A DNA stretch of 35,415 nucleotides from Candidatus Sericytochromatia bacterium. GTDB lineage: Bacteria > Cyanobacteriota > Sericytochromatia > UBA7694. The notes under the pieces were generated by a model. That model made no database searches, was not told the DNA's origin, and saw only the letters and a program-made list of their open reading frames with translations. Below are positions 5,399-17,787 of this stretch, in pieces; within the stretch, counting starts at the first letter, position 1, and each line of letters opens with the position of its first letter. A program made the translations under genes and the position numbers. The stretch covers positions 1 through 35,415 of the forward strand of contig JBIKWL010000056.1 of NCBI GenBank assembly GCA_044356335.1, read 5' to 3'.

Positions 5399-6178
5399 TT
5401 AGGGGGTTTGAGCACAGCCTTCATACGTGCTGCCCCGGAAAGAAATCGTGGTTTTGAAAGCATAATTTTGGGCCCCATCTTGGCAGGGCTCTTTGCTCAA
5501 GGTCACTTGCATGGCCTCGGTTTCGGGGGAACGATAGCGAAAGGTGTATTTGGACTGGTTTCCGTTCTGATCTGGGGCTTGCCAGAGCAGGCTTTCGACA
5601 ATTGGGAATTCCCCTTCCATAGATTTAAAATAGACCGTATTTTTGGTCAAAACCCGCAAGGTCCATTCGGGGCTGTGTCCAAAAGCGACAAAATCGCTTT
5701 TAAAACAGGTGCCGCTATTTAGCCAGGACTGTACCACCTTTACCGTCTTCACGCTCAGGGATTTGCGGTAGCCAGAGGCAAAGCCCTCACCAGAGGTCAA
5801 CGGGGCCATTGAGCCTGTGAGTTCAACATAGACAGGTTCGAGATCGATCAGGCCTTTGAGCGCTGCGTGGCGCTTGAGTAATTCTCCGTTGGGATCTTCA
5901 ACCCAGATTTCTTCTTTGCTGCCACAGGCCTTAAACAATTGCAGGCCCTCTCCGGCCATAAACAGGCCCTGAAAGATGCCGACTTCGGTAACGGGATCTG
6001 GGGCACCAGAAGCTTTAAGTTTGGTGGGTTTGGCAGAAGCGATTGGGTCATTGCTCCCAGTTATGGTTGAGGCTGAGCTAACCGGCCCAGGAGAGGAGGA
6101 AGCTTGGGTGTTCTCTTCGGTAGGGGGGCAACCGCAAAGCAGCAAACAAATGAGAAGCAAGCCCAATTTTAAACGCAT
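5399..6178 (-). CDS. Hypothetical lipoprotein (start moved to the ATG preceded by a perfect SD)
   Basis: The ORF track start at 6205 is GTG. A perfect AAGGAG lies 6 nt before the ATG at 6178 (minus), giving MRLKLGLLLICLLLCGCPP, a lipobox-type signal. The mature part is Ser-rich, then a Cys-containing globular domain. Fold family not recognised with confidence. Confidence 0.55.
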   Translation of the reverse strand: MRLKLGLLLICLLLCGCPPTEENTQASSSPGPVSSASTITGSNDPIASAKPTKLKASGAPDPVTEVGIFQGLFMAGEGLQLFKACGSKEEIWVEDPNGELLKRHAALKGLIDLEPVYVELTGSMAPLTSGEGFASGYRKSLSVKTVKVVQSWLNSGTCFKSDFVAFGHSPEWTLRVLTKNTVYFKSMEGEFPIVESLLWQAPDQNGNQSKYTFRYRSPETEAMQVTLSKEPCQDGAQNYAFKTTISFRGSTYEGCAQTP

Positions 6179-6353
6179 TCTATTCTCCTTTTTCAGACCA
6201 CCCACTACTGTTGCATACTAACTCCAATTGCCTCGGTTCGCCAAGTTTGTTCTTACGCTTTGGGCCTGTATTGCGATTGAACTGCGACAGTGGCAGACTG
6301 AAGTCACAGGGTTTAGAAACGCCCACCCAGTTAAACGAAAAAGGAAACTGCCT

Positions 6354-7541
6354 ATGGAGCTGAGTTTTGTTTTGGGTTGGCTCATCTCTGCCTTCTGGTT
6401 GGGTCTGATTTGGCGTCTCTTTCAACCCGCCATTCAGACTTCCTTTGAATTGGAACCTTCGGCTTGTGCTTATCCAGAGCCAGAGAGCTGGCCAAAAGTT
6501 TCGATTGTGGTGCCTGCTCGCAATGAGGCTCATGCCATTTCAGCTTGTCTGGAAAAACTCCTGGCTCAAGACTATCCCCATTTGGAGATCATTGCTGTCA
6601 ATGATCGTTCCCAAGATGCCACTGGGGAATTGATGACAACCTGGGCAAACCAAGATGATCGCTTAAAAGTTCTCACCCTTACAGACAAACCGGCTGATTG
6701 GCTGGGCAAAACCCATGCCCTCTGGCAAGGGGTTCAATCTGCATCCGGTGAGTGGCTTTTGTTTATGGATGGGGATATTTTTCTGGCTCCCGACTGCTTG
6801 AAGCTGGCTGTGCGTTTTGCCGCAGGGCGCAAAGTGGATCAACTCAGTTTGTTTCCCGACTTTCTGCCTGGCGGCTATTGGGAAAATCTGTTTATCTGCC
6901 ATTTTGGAATTATGTTTTTTTCGGTTTACGATCTTTCAGGACTTGCGGATCCTCAGCGCAAAAACAGTTATACGGGGATCGGTGCCTTTGGACTTTTCAA
7001 GCGGGAAAGTTATTTGGCCTGCGGCGGTCACCAAACCCTGGCCCTCGAGGTGATCGATGATGTGCAATTGGGGCGTTTGCTCAAACGCGAAGGGTTTAAA
7101 ATTAGCGCGCTTTTTGCCCGACAGCGTGTCCAATTGCGTTGGCATCAGGGCGTCAAAGGCCTGTTTAAAGGTTTGGAAAAAAATGCCTTTGCAGGGATTC
7201 GCTATTCTTGGTCTCTTTTGCTGCTCTTTACAGCCACCGTGGGGGCATTTTATCTTTTGCCCTATCTGGCTCTATTGCTCTGGCCAGACCTGCGCAGCAG
7301 TGGGTATGCAACGGCTCTGCTGCTGTTACATGGCCTCTATTTTGTTAAAGGACAAGAATTCTGCAAAAATCCCTGGATCGGTCTGGCTGCCCCTCTGGGA
7401 GCTGTACTCAATTTGGCCACATTTTGGCATTCTGCCCTCAAAACCCAATTGCAAAAGGGCGTTTATTGGCGGGAGGACTTTTACCCTCTCAAAGCCCTTA
7501 AAGCCCAGATGTATCGTGGCAAGCGCTTGACAAAGCCTTGA
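6354..7541 (+). CDS. Membrane-bound family-2 glycosyltransferase with Q/RxxRW motif (ceramide-glucosyltransferase/HpnI-like processive GT2)
   Basis: AAGGAA lies 7 nt upstream of ATG 6354. The N-terminal TM helix is MELSFVLGWLISAFWLGLIW. The GT-A core is SIVVPARNEAHAISACLEKLLAQDYPHLEIIAVNDRSQD...LFMDGDIF. QRVQLRW matches the QxxRW motif. Hydrophobic C-terminal TM segments are present. The track start at 6228 is a TTG without an SD and is rejected. Confidence 0.8.
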   Translation: MELSFVLGWLISAFWLGLIWRLFQPAIQTSFELEPSACAYPEPESWPKVSIVVPARNEAHAISACLEKLLAQDYPHLEIIAVNDRSQDATGELMTTWANQDDRLKVLTLTDKPADWLGKTHALWQGVQSASGEWLLFMDGDIFLAPDCLKLAVRFAAGRKVDQLSLFPDFLPGGYWENLFICHFGIMFFSVYDLSGLADPQRKNSYTGIGAFGLFKRESYLACGGHQTLALEVIDDVQLGRLLKREGFKISALFARQRVQLRWHQGVKGLFKGLEKNAFAGIRYSWSLLLLFTATVGAFYLLPYLALLLWPDLRSSGYATALLLLHGLYFVKGQEFCKNPWIGLAAPLGAVLNLATFWHSALKTQLQKGVYWREDFYPLKALKAQMYRGKRLTKP

Positions 7542-12440: not shown

Positions 12441-14378
12441 ATGAAAACCCCGCCAACGTTGTTTTGTCTGCTGCTTTTGGCAAGTTGCAGCTCAGAACTC
12501 CAAGGCGATTGGCAAGTGCGAACGGTTGTCAACGGTCAATTCCTTAAATTGGCGAAATCTTCCCCGACAGCAGACACTCCTCGCAAAGGTTGGCAACCCG
12601 AGGGGCTCGCTGTTTCCCCTGAGGGCTTGGTCTATGTCAGTGATCGCGAGAATCACCGGATTTTGCGCATTTCCCCCACAGGCGTGGTGCAAGAACATGC
12701 TGGCAATGGTGAGGCCGGAGAACAAGATGGAACCGGAGATAAGGCCCGCTTTCGCAACCCCGCGGGGCTTTCCCTGGGAAGCGATGGGCAACTTTATCTG
12801 GCCGACAGTGGCAACCATGTCTTGCGCCAAATCTCTGCCAATGGAGAGGTCAAGACCGTTGCACTCAGCCGCCAAATCGAATTTAAAACCCCTTTTTCGG
12901 TTTTGGCCGGCCCGGATAAAAGTTTGTATGTGGCCGACAGTGCCAGTGGGCAAATTTTTTCACTGGCAGAACAGGCAAATCAGGTAAAACAGGTTTTGCA
13001 AACCGCCCCCACCCTCTTACCGGAAGCCTTGGCCTCAGACAGCTCTGGCCGTTTGCTCTATTCCGACCTACAAGGACTCTGGCGCTTGGAACACAACGCA
13101 TCACGCACCCTCTTGCGCCGCCACGACAGCCAATTGTTGCGCGTGCGCAGCCTGATTTCAGACGGAAAAAATGGCTATTTTCTCAGTGATCCTTATTTGC
13201 ACAGGGTTTTACACTGGGTCCCCGGCGCAGCTTTGGAAGTGATCGCCGGCGGGCCCGATGCCGGCCAAAAAGACGGCAAGCCCGAAGAAGCCCGTTTTGC
13301 TTTTCCTGGCAGCTTGGCTCGGGGGCCTGCAGGTGAATTGTATCTGGCCGACACACGCAATAACCGCATTTGCAAATTGACCCCCAATGCCCAGGGCAAG
13401 TATCAGGTGAGCACCTTGGCCCGCAGTGGCTCCCAGGGCTTTGGCGAACGCCGGGCGGGTGAAGATCTGAGTTTGCCACATGGCGTGCTCTTTGACTCCC
13501 GGACGGAGCAATATATTGTCAGCGATTATTTGCACAATCGCCTTTTCAAAATCTCGGAGGATGGCATTGCCACTCCCTGGTTTGAGCCCTCTGAGACCAA
13601 CGGAGAACCTTTGGTATTGCCTGCAGGTTTGGCCCAAGGCCCCGATGGCAGCATTTATGTCTCTGGTTCAGGCCGCCACCGTATTCATAAAATCTCCCCC
13701 GAGGGCAAAATTTCGGTATTGGCAGGCAGCGGTCAGGTCGGATTTAAAGATGGAAAAGGCAAAACCGCTCAATTTTATTTGCCGTTTGGCTTGGCCGTGG
13801 GGCCCGACAACAGCGTTTTTGTTGCCGATCAGGGCAATCACGCGATTCGAAAAATCGCCAGCGATGGTACTGTTACCACCTTGGCGGGCAACGGTGAAGC
13901 CGGTTGGCAAGATGCACAGGGAAGCGCTGCCCGCTTTAATAAACCCTCAGGGGTCGCTTTGCACCCCGACGGCAGCCTCTGGGTGGCAGATAGCTGGAAT
14001 CACCGCATTCGCAAAATAACGCCCCAGGGCCAGGTCTCAACCGCTGTGGGAGAGAAAGTGCCAGGGATGGCAGATTTTGACCCCCAAAGAGATCAGCCAA
14101 ACAGCCTCTATGTTCCCGAAGGGCTGGCCATCAACGCTGCTGGACAGGTCTTTATTGCCGACAGTTGGAATCACCGCATACGCAAATGGGATCCTCAAAC
14201 CTCGCGCTTGCAGAGCTTAGCGGGCAACGGAAAATTTCTCAATTTTGGTTCGGGTTTTGCCGATGGGCGTGGCCAGATCGCCCATTTTAGTCAGCCCAAA
14301 GGGGTGGCTTTGGGCCCCCGGCGCCAATTGCTGGTTGCAGATACGGGGAATAACCGCATTCGGACCATGGAACCATGA
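12441..14378 (+). CDS. NHL-repeat (six-bladed beta-propeller type) lipoprotein
   Basis: MKTPPTLFCLLLLASCSS carries a lipobox. There are at least 8 NHL-like blades with the (A/S)D.GNHxIRKI signature (ADSGNHVLRQI, ADTRNNRICKL, ADQGNHAIRKI, ADSWNHRIRKI x2, ADTGNNRIRTM). The start lies 2 nt after the MTase stop. Confidence 0.85.
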   Translation: MKTPPTLFCLLLLASCSSELQGDWQVRTVVNGQFLKLAKSSPTADTPRKGWQPEGLAVSPEGLVYVSDRENHRILRISPTGVVQEHAGNGEAGEQDGTGDKARFRNPAGLSLGSDGQLYLADSGNHVLRQISANGEVKTVALSRQIEFKTPFSVLAGPDKSLYVADSASGQIFSLAEQANQVKQVLQTAPTLLPEALASDSSGRLLYSDLQGLWRLEHNASRTLLRRHDSQLLRVRSLISDGKNGYFLSDPYLHRVLHWVPGAALEVIAGGPDAGQKDGKPEEARFAFPGSLARGPAGELYLADTRNNRICKLTPNAQGKYQVSTLARSGSQGFGERRAGEDLSLPHGVLFDSRTEQYIVSDYLHNRLFKISEDGIATPWFEPSETNGEPLVLPAGLAQGPDGSIYVSGSGRHRIHKISPEGKISVLAGSGQVGFKDGKGKTAQFYLPFGLAVGPDNSVFVADQGNHAIRKIASDGTVTTLAGNGEAGWQDAQGSAARFNKPSGVALHPDGSLWVADSWNHRIRKITPQGQVSTAVGEKVPGMADFDPQRDQPNSLYVPEGLAINAAGQVFIADSWNHRIRKWDPQTSRLQSLAGNGKFLNFGSGFADGRGQIAHFSQPKGVALGPRRQLLVADTGNNRIRTMEP

Positions 14379-16108
14379 AACAATTTAAATTAGGGGCCTC
14401 ACTGTTTCTCCTCTGTTTGAGTGCCTGTGAGTCCTTGCCCGATCTTCCGTCCTCACAATCTCTTCAGCCTTTTGCACAGAGTACTACAAGCACTACAACA
14501 GGCCCTGCGGGTTTGCAAATTGAGCCCTTTCAATTGATGTTTAGGCAGCCCAGTGAACGCCAATTGGCTTTGCTCAAACAGCGTTGGCAGGGTGAGGTCC
14601 GCGATCAGATGCAGATTGGCAAACAAGACTGGTTCTTGCTGCAATTTTCTGCTGCCGCCCTGCCCGAAAGCCTCTACAGTGCATTACCCGAGGCCTGGCA
14701 GGCGCGAGAACTTCAAGATTTGCAGCAAGAACTGTCACAAACCCAATGGCAAACCCTCTTGCTGGCAGAAGATATCCGCCGCGAAGCGGGCTTTCAGACC
14801 GGACAAATCCAGCTCAACCCCCTGGCCCAATTGCCCCAAACCCAGCCATCAATGTCACAACAACCCCCCTCTTTTAACGATTTGCAGACAGGTTTGGCAG
14901 GCTCAGAGCCTGGCTGGTGGCGGCGTGAAACCGGTGTCGAAAGAGCCTGGAATCTCTCAATTGGCACAGCTGTACGTGTGGCTTGGCTGGATGTGGGTTT
15001 TAAACGCCACCATCCCGAAGTGGAGCGCCGCTTAATTTTCACGGGTGACAATAACCAAACCCTGGCCTGGAAAGACAAAGCCCCTGAGAGCATTGAATTG
15101 CCTGCAGGGGATCATGGGGCGGCGTCGATCATGGTGGGTTTTGCCGAAAGGCACAATGGTGTGCCCAGTGTTGGGGTGGCCCCCAATGCCCAGGTTTTGC
15201 CCTATGTAGCGGGCAGTGTCTGGGAAGCTGCCAGAGCATTAAAAGCCGCGGCAGCAAAAAAGCCCGACGTGATTGGCATGAATTTTGCCTGGCCGATGTA
15301 TCCCGGCTGGGAAAAACTGACGGCTTATTCTGAATACCTATTGCTCAAGGCTGTGATTCAAGAATTGGGCCAAGCAACCCATCTGCCTTTGGTCATTCCC
15401 GCGCACAATTATGGCGAGCCGATCACCGGCGGCCCCCGCGAGTGGTTTCCGATCAATTTGGCCGCCACCCAGGCCAATGTATTGGGCGTAGGTGGGGTTG
15501 AATTTAAAGATGGCAAAAAATTACAGGTTTGGTTTAACCCGGATATACTCACCGGTTACAATTCACGAGGCTCGAATTATGGCGCTGGTCTGATCTGGGC
15601 TCCTTCCGTGGCCCTCGACATCGCAGGTTCAGATCCTGCCGGGGTTATCCCGAATCAAATGAGTGGCACCAGCGCTTCTGCGCCATTTATGGCGGGTGTG
15701 ATGGCCTTACTGCGCTCCCGTTGCCCAGATTTAACCGCCCGTCAGCTGATTGACTTGCTCTTAAACAATGGTAAAAGCCTCGATGGCAGCCAGATATTGG
15801 GCAAACCGGGTGCCACTGTGCCCTTTGTCCAGGCCGATTTGGCTTTGGAAGCCTGTCTGCGGGCTTCGGGCAAAGATCCAACTCAATACCGGGCACAGCG
15901 CTTCAAGGGCATTTTGGAAAGGTGGGGTGATGGCTTTTGGGCCTTAAAAACAGAGACAACCCGTTTCAAGCTTTTGCCTACCCTGGCTGAATTGCAGCCA
16001 GGGTATCCCCAGCTCTTAGAGGGCAAAGCTGTGTCCCTGCGGGGATGGCAAAAGCTCCCCGGACAGATGTCCGAGGAGCTTGAGGTTTTGGAACTGGTTG
16101 CCGATTAA
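14375..16108 (+). CDS. Subtilisin-like serine peptidase (S8 family) lipoprotein with N-terminal propeptide-like region
   Basis: MKQFKLGASLFLLCLSAC carries a lipobox. Catalytic triad contexts are AWLDVGF (Asp), GDHGAAS (His) and SGTSASAPFMAGVMALL (Ser, classic GTSxAxP). The ATGA overlap of 4 nt with the NHL gene indicates translational coupling. Confidence 0.8.
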   Translation: MKQFKLGASLFLLCLSACESLPDLPSSQSLQPFAQSTTSTTTGPAGLQIEPFQLMFRQPSERQLALLKQRWQGEVRDQMQIGKQDWFLLQFSAAALPESLYSALPEAWQARELQDLQQELSQTQWQTLLLAEDIRREAGFQTGQIQLNPLAQLPQTQPSMSQQPPSFNDLQTGLAGSEPGWWRRETGVERAWNLSIGTAVRVAWLDVGFKRHHPEVERRLIFTGDNNQTLAWKDKAPESIELPAGDHGAASIMVGFAERHNGVPSVGVAPNAQVLPYVAGSVWEAARALKAAAAKKPDVIGMNFAWPMYPGWEKLTAYSEYLLLKAVIQELGQATHLPLVIPAHNYGEPITGGPREWFPINLAATQANVLGVGGVEFKDGKKLQVWFNPDILTGYNSRGSNYGAGLIWAPSVALDIAGSDPAGVIPNQMSGTSASAPFMAGVMALLRSRCPDLTARQLIDLLLNNGKSLDGSQILGKPGATVPFVQADLALEACLRASGKDPTQYRAQRFKGILERWGDGFWALKTETTRFKLLPTLAELQPGYPQLLEGKAVSLRGWQKLPGQMSEELEVLELVAD

Positions 16109-16210
16109 TTTTCAGTGAAAATCAGGCAAGAGCAGTACACCCAGAATCATGACAACCAACACAAATTCCCATCCGTTCATATCTACTGCTCCTTTCTGAA
16201 ATCAAGTGGA

Positions 16211-17647
16211 TTATTTTGCAAGACGCTCTAAGAGGCTCTGAAGTTCCCCCAAAGCCTTAGAATAGGCCTCAGAGATACGGTATTTGCGGGTTCCACGCCC
16301 TTCGAGCAAGAAGTTTTGACCATTCACTGTCACTTCCAGTTTTTCCACACTGCGACATTCTTTGGTCTGGGGGGCGTCTGCGGGAATGGCTTCCAATTGC
16401 AGAAAGAGCCCCTGCAATGCTGTGCTATTGAGTAATTTTTGGACAGACTCAATTTCGCCATTGCTTAAAGTCCGGCTCTGAACCGGGGGCGGACCCGCCA
16501 CCAGGGTTTGGGCATTTTCAAGGGCCCAGGTAAAAGAACCGTTGGTTTTGAGCTCATAGCGGGTATAACTTTCCTGCCCACATTCCCCTTCGACAGTGAC
16601 TTTGAGGGGCAGGGTATAGAGTTGTTTTCCCACATTCTGATGGCGATCGGCCAGACCCTTTAAATGGCTGTCTAACTTCATCAGGGCGTTGCGATAGGCC
16701 TCTGTGTGGACAAACTTACGCCCGTTGAGGTCATAGGTTTTGGCTTGATTCTGAACCATCAAACTGAAATTTTTGACAGTGCGGCATTCCAGGGTTTGGG
16801 GGGCATCATCGGGTACGGGTTTGGATTCTGCCCTCAGTTTTTCGAGGTTGAGTTCAGCAATCAAATTTGCCAATTCACCCAACTCTTGGCTGGTCAATTG
16901 CCGGGTTTGCAGGCCTGTTTGGGGCCCGCCTGGAGCGACGGGTGCATTGGGATCGGCCAGAAAGCGAAAGAGTCCCGCAGGCAAGACTTCATAGAGAACC
17001 TGTTCACCCATATCACATTCTCCGTTGCCCGTCACTTTCAGGGGCAGGGCTGTGTTTGTATTGGACTGAGGCGGGCTGGCAGAGGGGCTGGGATCCGCCA
17101 TCGGGTTGTTTTTGAGGTTGTCGAGGAATTCCCGCAATTCTTTCATGGCTGCGGTATAAGCTGCTGTATGAATCAATTTGCGGCCATTGCTGTCGAAGCG
17201 GGTGGCTTTGCCATTGACGCTCAATTCAGCGACTTCGATTGTGCGGCAGTCCGCGGTCTGAGGGGAGCCCTCGGGCACGACGGTGTCTGCTTTGGCCAAC
17301 TCTGCCAGGTCCAATTTTTTGAGCAGTGTTTTGAGTTTGTTTTGCTCTGTATTTGAGAGCTTGCGGCTCTGTAAGGGGGGCTGGGTGGTTTCCATGCTGC
17401 CTGGGGCGGGGACTTCCGCATAGCTGAAGGTGCCATCGGCTTTGACTTCATATCGGGTGTAACTGGGCATCTGGCACTCACCTTCGTGAATCAGCTTAAG
17501 TGGCAGGCCGTAAATACCCGAGTCTGTTTGGCCAATTTGACCAATTTGGCCCAAAGACAGGCCATTGCATGCTGTTAAAGGCAGGGATAGCAGACAAAAG
17601 CTGGAGGCAATTAACAGACTGGATTTTAATGTTTGATTGAGTATCAT
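16211..17647 (-). CDS. Lipoprotein composed of three tandem ~135-aa internal repeat domains, each with a conserved Cys pair (unknown domain)
   Basis: The start is moved to the ATG at 17647, which has a perfect AAGGAG 6 nt upstream (MILNQTLKSSLLIASSFCLLSLPLTAC, lipobox). Repeats are at roughly nt 17114-17518, 16643-17047 and 16214-16624. They share PLK(L/V)..EGEC...Y.(L/V)...G.F...Q.R.L...E......L.......P.DAPQT.ECR...........G..........GRK..H.EAY..A...L...L. Confidence 0.65.
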   Translation of the reverse strand: MILNQTLKSSLLIASSFCLLSLPLTACNGLSLGQIGQIGQTDSGIYGLPLKLIHEGECQMPSYTRYEVKADGTFSYAEVPAPGSMETTQPPLQSRKLSNTEQNKLKTLLKKLDLAELAKADTVVPEGSPQTADCRTIEVAELSVNGKATRFDSNGRKLIHTAAYTAAMKELREFLDNLKNNPMADPSPSASPPQSNTNTALPLKVTGNGECDMGEQVLYEVLPAGLFRFLADPNAPVAPGGPQTGLQTRQLTSQELGELANLIAELNLEKLRAESKPVPDDAPQTLECRTVKNFSLMVQNQAKTYDLNGRKFVHTEAYRNALMKLDSHLKGLADRHQNVGKQLYTLPLKVTVEGECGQESYTRYELKTNGSFTWALENAQTLVAGPPPVQSRTLSNGEIESVQKLLNSTALQGLFLQLEAIPADAPQTKECRSVEKLEVTVNGQNFLLEGRGTRKYRISEAYSKALGELQSLLERLAK

Positions 17648-17694
17648 GGGAGGCTCCTTAAGTGACGTTGATGATAATTTCATTATCTAAGATT

Positions 17695-17732
17695 AGTTTA
17701 CTTATTGTCAACAAGATGACCAATAGTAAACT
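17695..17732. promoter_or_regulatory. Near-perfect 12/13-bp inverted repeat (AGTTTACTTATTG-N13-CAATAGTAAACT) in the promoter region of the 3-repeat lipoprotein gene
   Basis: The arms are reverse complements apart from one extra A. The site is centred ~65 nt upstream of ATG 17647 in AT-rich intergenic DNA, which is an operator-like position. Confidence 0.35.
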
Positions 17733-17787
17733 TACAATAAATTAAAATAATTTTGCAGATGTAGTCTGCCACTCATTTTGCAATCGA

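Follow-up and report, generated by a model that had tools for sequence, protein, structure and literature searches.

The 35,415-nt stretch of contig JBIKWL010000056.1 analysed here (assembly GCA_044356335.1, Candidatus Sericytochromatia bacterium), hereafter the window, encodes on its minus strand an exported, lipid-anchored, three-domain protein of 478 amino acids (aa) with invariant Cys pairs. Its repeated domain is predicted with confidence to adopt the two-layer β-sheet/helix sandwich of Mago nashi. The protein belongs to a small family specific to the Sericytochromatia and Melainabacteria, the non-photosynthetic relatives of cyanobacteria, and its gene lies downstream of a promoter overlapped by a conserved 17-bp palindrome. 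Taken as a whole, we read the system as a regulated, lineage-specific, lipid-anchored envelope binding scaffold built of Mago-like domains, a tentative reading to which we give slightly less than an even chance. According to this model, a signal peptide, an acylated Cys27, and a disordered tether would hold three domains of ~133 aa in the envelope, where a partner protein or a component of the wall would be bound by the flat sheet, or else by the cluster of conserved loops, of each differentiated domain. The gene would be read from a strong sigma-70-type promoter, with the -35 box and spacer inside the palindrome, and a dimeric DNA-binding regulator would most likely occupy that site. Because the palindrome overlaps the -35 to -20 region, the regulator would act as a repressor, keeping the gene off until a signal arrives. 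The claims of an earlier note on this DNA were re-examined on the window and related loci (the window plus 11 loci, 188 kb in total, and additionally L132, L133, and L134), the loci and homologous proteins being designated below by L and P numbers, respectively.

The minus-strand open reading frame extends over 16211-17683, the likely true start codon being the ATG at 17647-17645, preceded after a 6-nt gap by AAGGAG at 17659-17654. Since this ATG and its ribosome-binding site (RBS) are both kept in the orthologous loci, and the gene calls of the homologues start at the same place, the product is taken as 478 aa. The gene and its product comprise the following elements:

17654-17659, minus strand: RBS (AAGGAG), separated from the ATG by 6 nt, with AGGAG unchanged across 4 orthologous loci

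16211-17647, minus strand: lipoprotein coding sequence, 478 aa; stop codon at 16211-16213; 38 homologues at E <= 1e-33

17567-17647, minus strand: lipoprotein signal peptide, aa 1-26, and lipobox Cys27 (LPLTAC), read from the sequence

17510-17566, minus strand: flexible tether from the lipid anchor to the first domain, aa 28-46; pLDDT <50 over residues 1-43 of the full-length AlphaFold2 model

17111-17509, minus strand: repeat 1, aa 47-179, with Cys58 and Cys134; 170 bits with the repeat hidden Markov model (HMM), pLDDT 94.1 in the single-unit AlphaFold2 model

17051-17110, minus strand: Pro/Ser-rich disordered linker, aa 180-199; pLDDT <50 over residues 184-198

16649-17050, minus strand: repeat 2, aa 200-333, with Cys211 and Cys288; repeat HMM 154 bits, same secondary-structure order in the full-length model

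16217-16615, minus strand: repeat 3, aa 345-477, with Cys356 and Cys431, of the C-terminal subtype; repeat HMM 152 bits, clusters with last units

The N-terminus (MILNQTLKSSLLIASSFCLLSLPLTAC) displays the hallmarks of an Lgt/LspA substrate, with a positive n-region and hydrophobic core followed by a lipobox that fits [LVI][ASTVI][GAS]-C (MILNQTLKSSLLIASSFCLLSLP-LTAC27). An equivalent N-terminal Cys follows a hydrophobic stretch in 37 of the 38 homologues, the exception, P0007, being an N-terminally truncated fragment; all 38 contain, in addition, exactly two further Cys per repeat. The three repeats align at 37-39% identity, with 34 invariant columns that include GEC and ECR, in keeping with the earlier description of a lipoprotein with three tandem repeats, each carrying a Cys pair. 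The internal repeats were found by direct alignment and an iterated HMM, and were not reported by a self-BLASTP of the lipoprotein. Among 82 non-redundant repeat units of the family, the two Cys are the sole fully invariant residues, with P3, E11, G26, L51, P83, T85, R89, R110, and L129 (unit numbering) near-invariant.

The homologues range from 315 to 779 aa, and their named sources are Candidatus Sericytochromatia, Melainabacteria or 'Cyanobacteriota', all metagenome-assembled. An exhaustive profile search of 1.84 billion representatives confines the family to 66 clusters, with 1-5 repeats per protein. When 112 units were clustered, the C-terminal unit emerged as a distinct subtype (25 units), always last in proteins of 2, 3, 4, and 5 repeats, and the other repeat positions likewise grouped across species. 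The fixed place of the C-terminal subtype and the cross-species groups at the other positions show an ancient, not a recent, triplication, the repeats being old, positionally differentiated paralogues; the internal duplication proposed in the earlier note was accordingly no recent event. The units look recently homogenised in a few lineages (P0024, P0027, and P0031). Some single-repeat members display extra regions, including (i) a C-terminal region of ~110 aa with a CPxxxxC pair in P0064, (ii) a fused DUF6174 domain in P0089, and (iii) a 230-aa N-terminal region in P0061, none of these extra regions having a known function. Locus L009 contains a co-directional tandem pair of family genes, one for a paralogue of 316 aa with two repeats (5958-6908) and one for the 453-aa three-repeat P0027 (7001-8362).

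The AlphaFold2 model of unit 1, computed from the 82-unit alignment, shows a mean pLDDT of 94.1 and a pTM of 0.87; in the predicted order, four β-strands precede a pair of helices, after which two or three further strands lead to a long helix at the C-terminus. The full-length model (pTM 0.40) displays three such domains at pLDDT ~80-94, with disorder in the tether, to residue 43, and in the first linker, residues 184-198. The protein is thus modelled as three independently folded α/β domains arranged as beads on a string, whose interdomain arrangement in the model is not reliable. As in the Mago fold, the long helices of the predicted unit all pack against the same side of an antiparallel sheet. 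A Foldseek search of the unit against the PDB returned Mago structures in all of the top 9 positions (E = 2e-4 to 4e-3, TM 0.52-0.62), the remainder being noise. The Cys pair of each domain would form a disulfide pinning the most conserved loop, P-x-DAPQT-x-EC-R, to the β1-β2 turn that contains GEC.

At the sequence level, the domain went unrecognized in the earlier note, and it still finds no assignment in Pfam at threshold, where the matches are to DUF6438 only and sub-threshold; the NCBIfam search with the lipoprotein gave no match, nor did PADLOC, the viral structure library or the unit profile when run against PDB sequences. DUF6438 (PF20033) is the closest sequence family and a probable remote relative, itself an uncharacterized bacterial extracytoplasmic domain. 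The lipoprotein scores 21.2 bits (E = 3.5e-4) against a gathering threshold of 30 bits, and 9 of the 82 units match at E <= 0.1, the best at E = 1e-4, likewise sub-threshold. For a direct comparison, 120 real DUF6438 proteins were retrieved with a consensus-like probe (probe against PF20033, E = 2.5e-44). The unit alignment matches these members in hhalign with a probability of 68.9% and P = 4.5e-5 over 108 collinear columns, whereas the HMM-to-sequence scores are low (<= 9.8 bits). Both families share a similar length, a β-hairpin with a DG turn, an 'Ls..e...L..l' helix, and a D-x-P loop. The first Cys of the unit aligns with the first Cys of the DUF6438 CxxxC motif (CFGTCP); the rest of the motif is missing from the lipoprotein family, which has instead its second Cys ~76 residues downstream. 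The retrieved DUF6438 members are single-domain proteins of 122-204 aa, with named sources in Chloroflexota and one cyanobacterium, and those inspected show a hydrophobic N-terminus suggesting export and no evident lipobox. On these alignments, the lipoprotein domain may be regarded as a divergent, tandemly repeated, Cys-paired variant within an uncharacterized superfamily.

Whether the likeness to Mago nashi reflects common descent is a separate matter. Mago nashi/MAGOH (PF02792), a core component of the eukaryotic exon junction complex, shares 10-12% identity with the unit and is a single-domain, nuclear/cytosolic protein without the Cys pair, obligately bound to Y14, whereas the lipoprotein domain is exported, lipid-anchored, Cys-paired, and tandem. 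The MAGO family has been reported as eukaryote-specific (PMC3885619). No Y14-like gene was noted in the window, though no search was aimed at Y14; such a partner is not expected, because the lipoprotein is exported and bacterial. The unit HMM scores up to 14.9 bits (nominal single-comparison P ~1e-6) against 54 Mago sequences (mean 8.3), compared with <= 0.3 bits for reversed Mago sequences and <= 7.4 bits for ~2,000 real control open reading frames from 1.1 Mb of unrelated prokaryotic DNA. The aligned region spans β2-β3 (YE..DG.F.Y versus FEFRPDGKLRY) and the first helix and reaches the Pro-rich loop. With hhalign, the unit and Mago are collinear across the domain at P = 0.0021 and a probability of 13%, 40 column shuffles giving P >= 0.046; the Mago profile is low in diversity (Neff 2.2), and the signal is reproducible but weak. 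On the other side, no unit matches Pfam Mago_nashi (PF02792), Mago is absent among the 66 matches of the exhaustive profile search and from the PDB sequence search with the unit profile, and DUF6438 and Mago give no signal in either profile-profile or HMM-to-sequence comparison. Homology is possible, and we consider it doubtful that the repeat unit and Mago nashi are truly related by descent. A literature search on DUF6438, the Mago-like fold, prokaryotic Mago homologues, and Sericytochromatia lipoproteins found nothing relevant.

Upstream of the gene, the order of elements on the minus strand is the stop of a 155-aa gene (17788), a terminator-like hairpin, an inverted repeat, the -35 and -10 boxes, AAGGAG, and the ATG. 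The hairpin separates the 155-aa gene from the lipoprotein promoter, and the lipoprotein gene would be monocistronic. The region comprises:

17755-17769, minus strand: terminator-like hairpin, GCAGACTACATCTGC then AAAATTATTT, after the 155-aa gene (terminator scan)

17695-17732, no strand assigned: long inverted repeat AGTTTACTTATTG-N13-CAATAGTAAACT, its arms being the outer half-sites of two tandem palindromes

17715-17731, minus strand: distal degenerate palindrome GTTTAC-TATTG-GTCATC, 2 nt upstream of the proximal copy (one-mismatch match)

17696-17712, minus strand: proximal 17-bp palindrome GTTGAC-AATAA-GTAAAC, its left half holding the -35 box and its right half falling within the spacer, 14 nt upstream of the -10 box

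17682-17711, minus strand: sigma-70-type promoter, TTGACA (17711-17706), 18-nt spacer, and GATAAT (17687-17682), 11/12 in the consensus scan

The long inverted repeat had been taken for the likely binding site of a dimeric regulator. It occurs only once in the window, where shuffled sequence gives an expectation of 0, and its 8-mer half-site is found nowhere else in the 35 kb; its arms pair at 12/13 only with a 1-nt bulge, the ungapped version comprising 16-nt arms of 81% complementarity. On the alignments it is better read as two tandem 17-bp palindromes of the form GTTKAC-N5-GTMAAC. The idea of a regulatory site holds, in that the element is conserved far above neutral sites in orthologous promoters and its core palindrome recurs at distant, non-syntenic homologues; the inner part of the 13-nt arms is not conserved. 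Across four orthologous loci, the outer boxes, -35, -10, and RBS are invariant, as are TTGACA and ATAAT among the orthologues. The 54-nt promoter core of the window is 85% identical to that of L005, against 45% at 4-fold degenerate sites, and 76% identical to that of L132, against 26%.

The GTAAAC/GTTTAC boxes recur upstream of distant, non-syntenic homologues. All 9 exact matches to GTTKAC-N5-GTMAAC in the 188 kb lie 49-85 nt upstream of family start codons (0.03 expected), including the non-syntenic L002, L008, L010, and L011, and L132 shows one further exact copy. Allowing one mismatch adds L003/L004 and the second tandem copy in the window clade, at the cost of a single off-target site. 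This distal copy occurs in L001, L005, L006, and L007 as GTTTAC-N5-GTAAYC, one mismatch from the consensus, and the same tandem layout is found in L003; L134 displays two direct AAGTAAACAAATGG boxes. In a 10-locus alignment, the hexamers GTTxAC and GTxxxC are invariant. At most of the loci that were inspected, the -35 box (TTGAC/TTTAC) forms the left half-site and the right half-site starts 13-14 nt before a candidate -10, the register in L008 depending on the choice of the -10 candidate. Since the proximal palindrome overlaps the -35 box and recurs at non-syntenic homologues, the 17-bp palindrome, conserved above neutral and in fixed register to the core promoter, is probably an operator. It resembles the classical repressor sites placed over the -35 box and spacer, as a 6-5-6 palindrome in fixed register with -35/-10, arranged in tandem and conserved across genomes. 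The CpxR box (GTAAA-N5-GTAAA) and the PhoP box (TGTTTA-N5-TGTTTA) of Proteobacteria are direct repeats. They contain GTAAA or TGTTTA, a resemblance that is a lead only, whereas the half-sites of the lipoprotein gene are inverted with an 11-bp spacing. The search for the motif elsewhere found the core palindrome before family genes in relatives, and no regulon was defined in the 188 kb; the scan across all genome contigs for AGTTTACT-N20-24-AGTAAACT gave, among the matches listed, chance matches from every phylum and is uninformative on a regulon.

Three other assignments were considered for the promoter region and discarded, including (i) an NtcA-like site (GTA-N8-GAC), which agrees with some loci but fails at L008, at L011, and in the window, and coexists with a perfect -35 box; (ii) GTAAAC as the -35 box of an extracytoplasmic-function (ECF) sigma factor, no conserved -10 motif being present 16-17 nt downstream; and (iii) the upstream 155-aa gene as the regulator, a gene that has no Pfam match, no DNA-binding motif recognizable on inspection, and no linkage to the family at other loci. 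Separately, the ACGTCAC at 17662-17668 (minus strand), between the -10 box and the RBS in the predicted 5' leader, contains a GTCA invariant in the four orthologous loci, with variable neighbouring bases.

Within the scaffold reading, the non-enzymatic binding or scaffold role in the envelope, taken alone, is a possibility that we rate at about one chance in three. Several points weigh against the reading. The binding-scaffold role is drawn from architecture alone, no member of the family being functionally annotated by experiment or homology, and the fold comes from prediction and the bonding of the Cys pair from inference, not from a solved structure. The loops contain many invariant polar residues, E11, D81, Q84, T85, E87, R89, N108, R110, H114, and Y118 (unit numbering), which might just as well indicate catalysis or the binding of a small molecule or a metal. 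As regards regulation, the palindrome was not found upstream of L009 and L133 (both L009 paralogues), its left half is the -35 box itself, so that its conservation is partly plain promoter conservation, and none of the genomes examined shows a regulator gene linked to the locus.

The polar cluster leads to the alternative that survives best, a ligand-binding or catalytic domain in which these residues, together with the Cys pair, would form a metal, sugar, peptidoglycan-fragment or redox site. The number of invariant or near-invariant polar loop residues suits such a site, as do the CxxxC (CFGTCP) that the probable relative DUF6438 aligns with the first Cys and the peptidoglycan-related neighbours (LysM, PG_binding_1, and M14) of some loci. 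However, the two Cys stand ~76 residues apart instead of in a CxxC motif, no sequence or fold match links the domain to any enzyme or binding family, and a copy number that varies (1-5) typifies binding or spacing modules more than it does enzymes; we consider a ligand-binding or catalytic domain unlikely.

The S8 peptidase gene next door suggests another alternative, somewhat less probable still, in which the protein would be a multi-headed inhibitor of an exported hydrolase, the disulfide-tethered loop (DAPQT-x-EC) entering the active site of the S8 enzyme, another envelope protease or a wall hydrolase. Tandem Kazal inhibitors and the lysozyme inhibitor Ivy, with its conserved loop, provide analogies. 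The gene of the S8 peptidase, at 14375-16108 on the plus strand (E = 6e-19 for Pfam Peptidase_S8), and the lipoprotein gene converge across an interval that the earlier note put at ~100 nt:

16109-16210, no strand assigned: convergent spacer between the S8 and lipoprotein genes, 102 nt, with a long imperfect hairpin possible (RNA fold -30 kcal/mol, z = -1.78, modest)

The S8 protein, which has an LSAC lipobox, is itself a lipoprotein, and its DxG, HG, and SGTSxSAP motifs are compatible with a catalytic triad. The protease inhibitors (Emfourin I104, SSI, Kazal, and ecotin) are likewise small, exported, Cys-stabilized domains, sometimes in tandem, with an exposed loop; a tethered array of repeated, Cys-stabilized domains with one exposed, highly conserved loop is a fitting architecture, and a protease gene lies nearby in the window clade. 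A convergent S8-NHL-methyltransferase-PatA_N operon is common to five loci (the window, L001, L005, L006/L007, and L132), the lipoproteins of which are 92-57% identical, and the adjacency persists to the 57%-identical two-repeat homologue at L132, rearranged on the other flank. Further neighbours comprise, in one distant locus, L133, a co-directional M14 peptidase gene directly upstream and, in two distant loci, a convergent LysM protein.

Nevertheless, the two genes are convergent and read from separate promoters, which leaves no co-transcription, and the S8 adjacency is limited to the close clade, so that the conserved linkage expected between an inhibitor and its target protease is lacking. 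S8 is absent from 8 loci outside this clade (7 independent, L003 and L004 being the same place), namely L002, L003/L004, L008, L009, L010, L011, L133, and L134, and 7 of the 8 (6 of 7 independent), that is, all those named apart from L133, have no adjacent peptidase. The domain shows no sequence or fold match to Emfourin, SSI, Kazal, ecotin or I9, and canonical inhibitors usually vary in their reactive loops, whereas the loop of the lipoprotein is the most conserved element of its domain. Emfourin (I104), tried as a lead on isolated sub-threshold matches (single unit, E = 0.079), had no fold-search support and was rejected. The protease inhibitor or substrate mimic floated in the earlier note is therefore unsupported, and an inhibitor is rather improbable.

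Very improbable, finally, is that the inverted repeat is not an operator but a hairpin in RNA or DNA (terminating the 155-aa gene or structuring the 5' untranslated region) or part of an alternative-sigma promoter: it does sit between the stop of the co-directional upstream gene and the lipoprotein start, with arms that pair over 16 nt in the window, but the inner arm bases differ in relatives without compensation while the hexamer boxes alone are kept, which argues against an RNA hairpin, the repeat is AT-rich without a T-tract and has a better terminator-like hairpin upstream of it (17755-17769), the site lies upstream of the predicted transcription start, the register between the 17-bp palindrome and the -10 box stays the same at non-syntenic loci, and no conserved ECF-type -10 motif is found 16-17 nt after GTAAAC.

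The wider neighbourhood of the family genes is varied. At L002 (9627-11363) and L010 (8133-10109), the family gene is convergent with a gene for a 578-658-aa LysM protein, followed by one for a ~245-aa protein, in which TPR repeats were confirmed in L002; this neighbourhood in two distant genomes constitutes a second recurring context and may hint at a cell-wall connection. PG_binding_1 is found, besides LysM and M14, among the peptidoglycan-related neighbours in some loci. The 578-aa LysM protein of L002, considered as a counterpart of the 577-aa S8 protein, is unrelated to it despite its size. A beta-lactamase-family gene neighbours the family gene in L003/L004, a TPR protein and a 1764-aa protein lie beside it in L134, and its neighbours are unrelated in L008, L009, and L011.

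In the window itself, the genes for an NHL-repeat protein (lipobox LLASC) and the S8 peptidase (12441-16108, plus strand) overlap by ATGA at 14375-14378 and are probably translationally coupled; the pair follows PatA_N-like and methyltransferase genes in one operon, adjoining valyl-tRNA synthetase. On the other side, a WGR and DUF1963 protein (18256-19233, minus strand) is directly followed by the 155-aa protein (17788-18255, minus strand), which has no family match. This pair is kept in L001 and L006, only a 154-aa gene is called in L005, and neither is present in L132; PADLOC gave no match. Further upstream lies the gene for an 817-aa protein (19302-21755, minus strand), whose orthologues match Pfam MVP_shoulder, Band_7 and, faintly, Vault_3; this major-vault-protein-like bacterial protein is kept upstream of the lipoprotein locus in the close clade.

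An uncharacterized, lineage-restricted envelope protein family is thus defined in the non-photosynthetic sister groups of cyanobacteria, and an attractive but unsupported annotation, that of an inhibitor of the adjacent subtilase, is removed. The confident predicted fold and the clear domain boundaries allow constructs for structural and binding studies to be designed directly, and the conserved promoter palindrome provides a concrete handle on transcriptional regulation in a phylum in which almost nothing is known of regulators and their sites. Were the relationship to Mago one of true homology, the family of Sericytochromatia and Melainabacteria, perhaps with the wider DUF6438 superfamily, would comprise the first prokaryotic homologues of a core protein of the exon junction complex, originating either as an ancestral bacterial fold or by an ancient acquisition of eukaryotic origin that was later turned into an exported, disulfide-stapled module. 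The likeness would then have a bearing on how the exon junction complex arose; as a case of convergence, it would represent a clean recurrence of the fold in a wholly different cellular setting.

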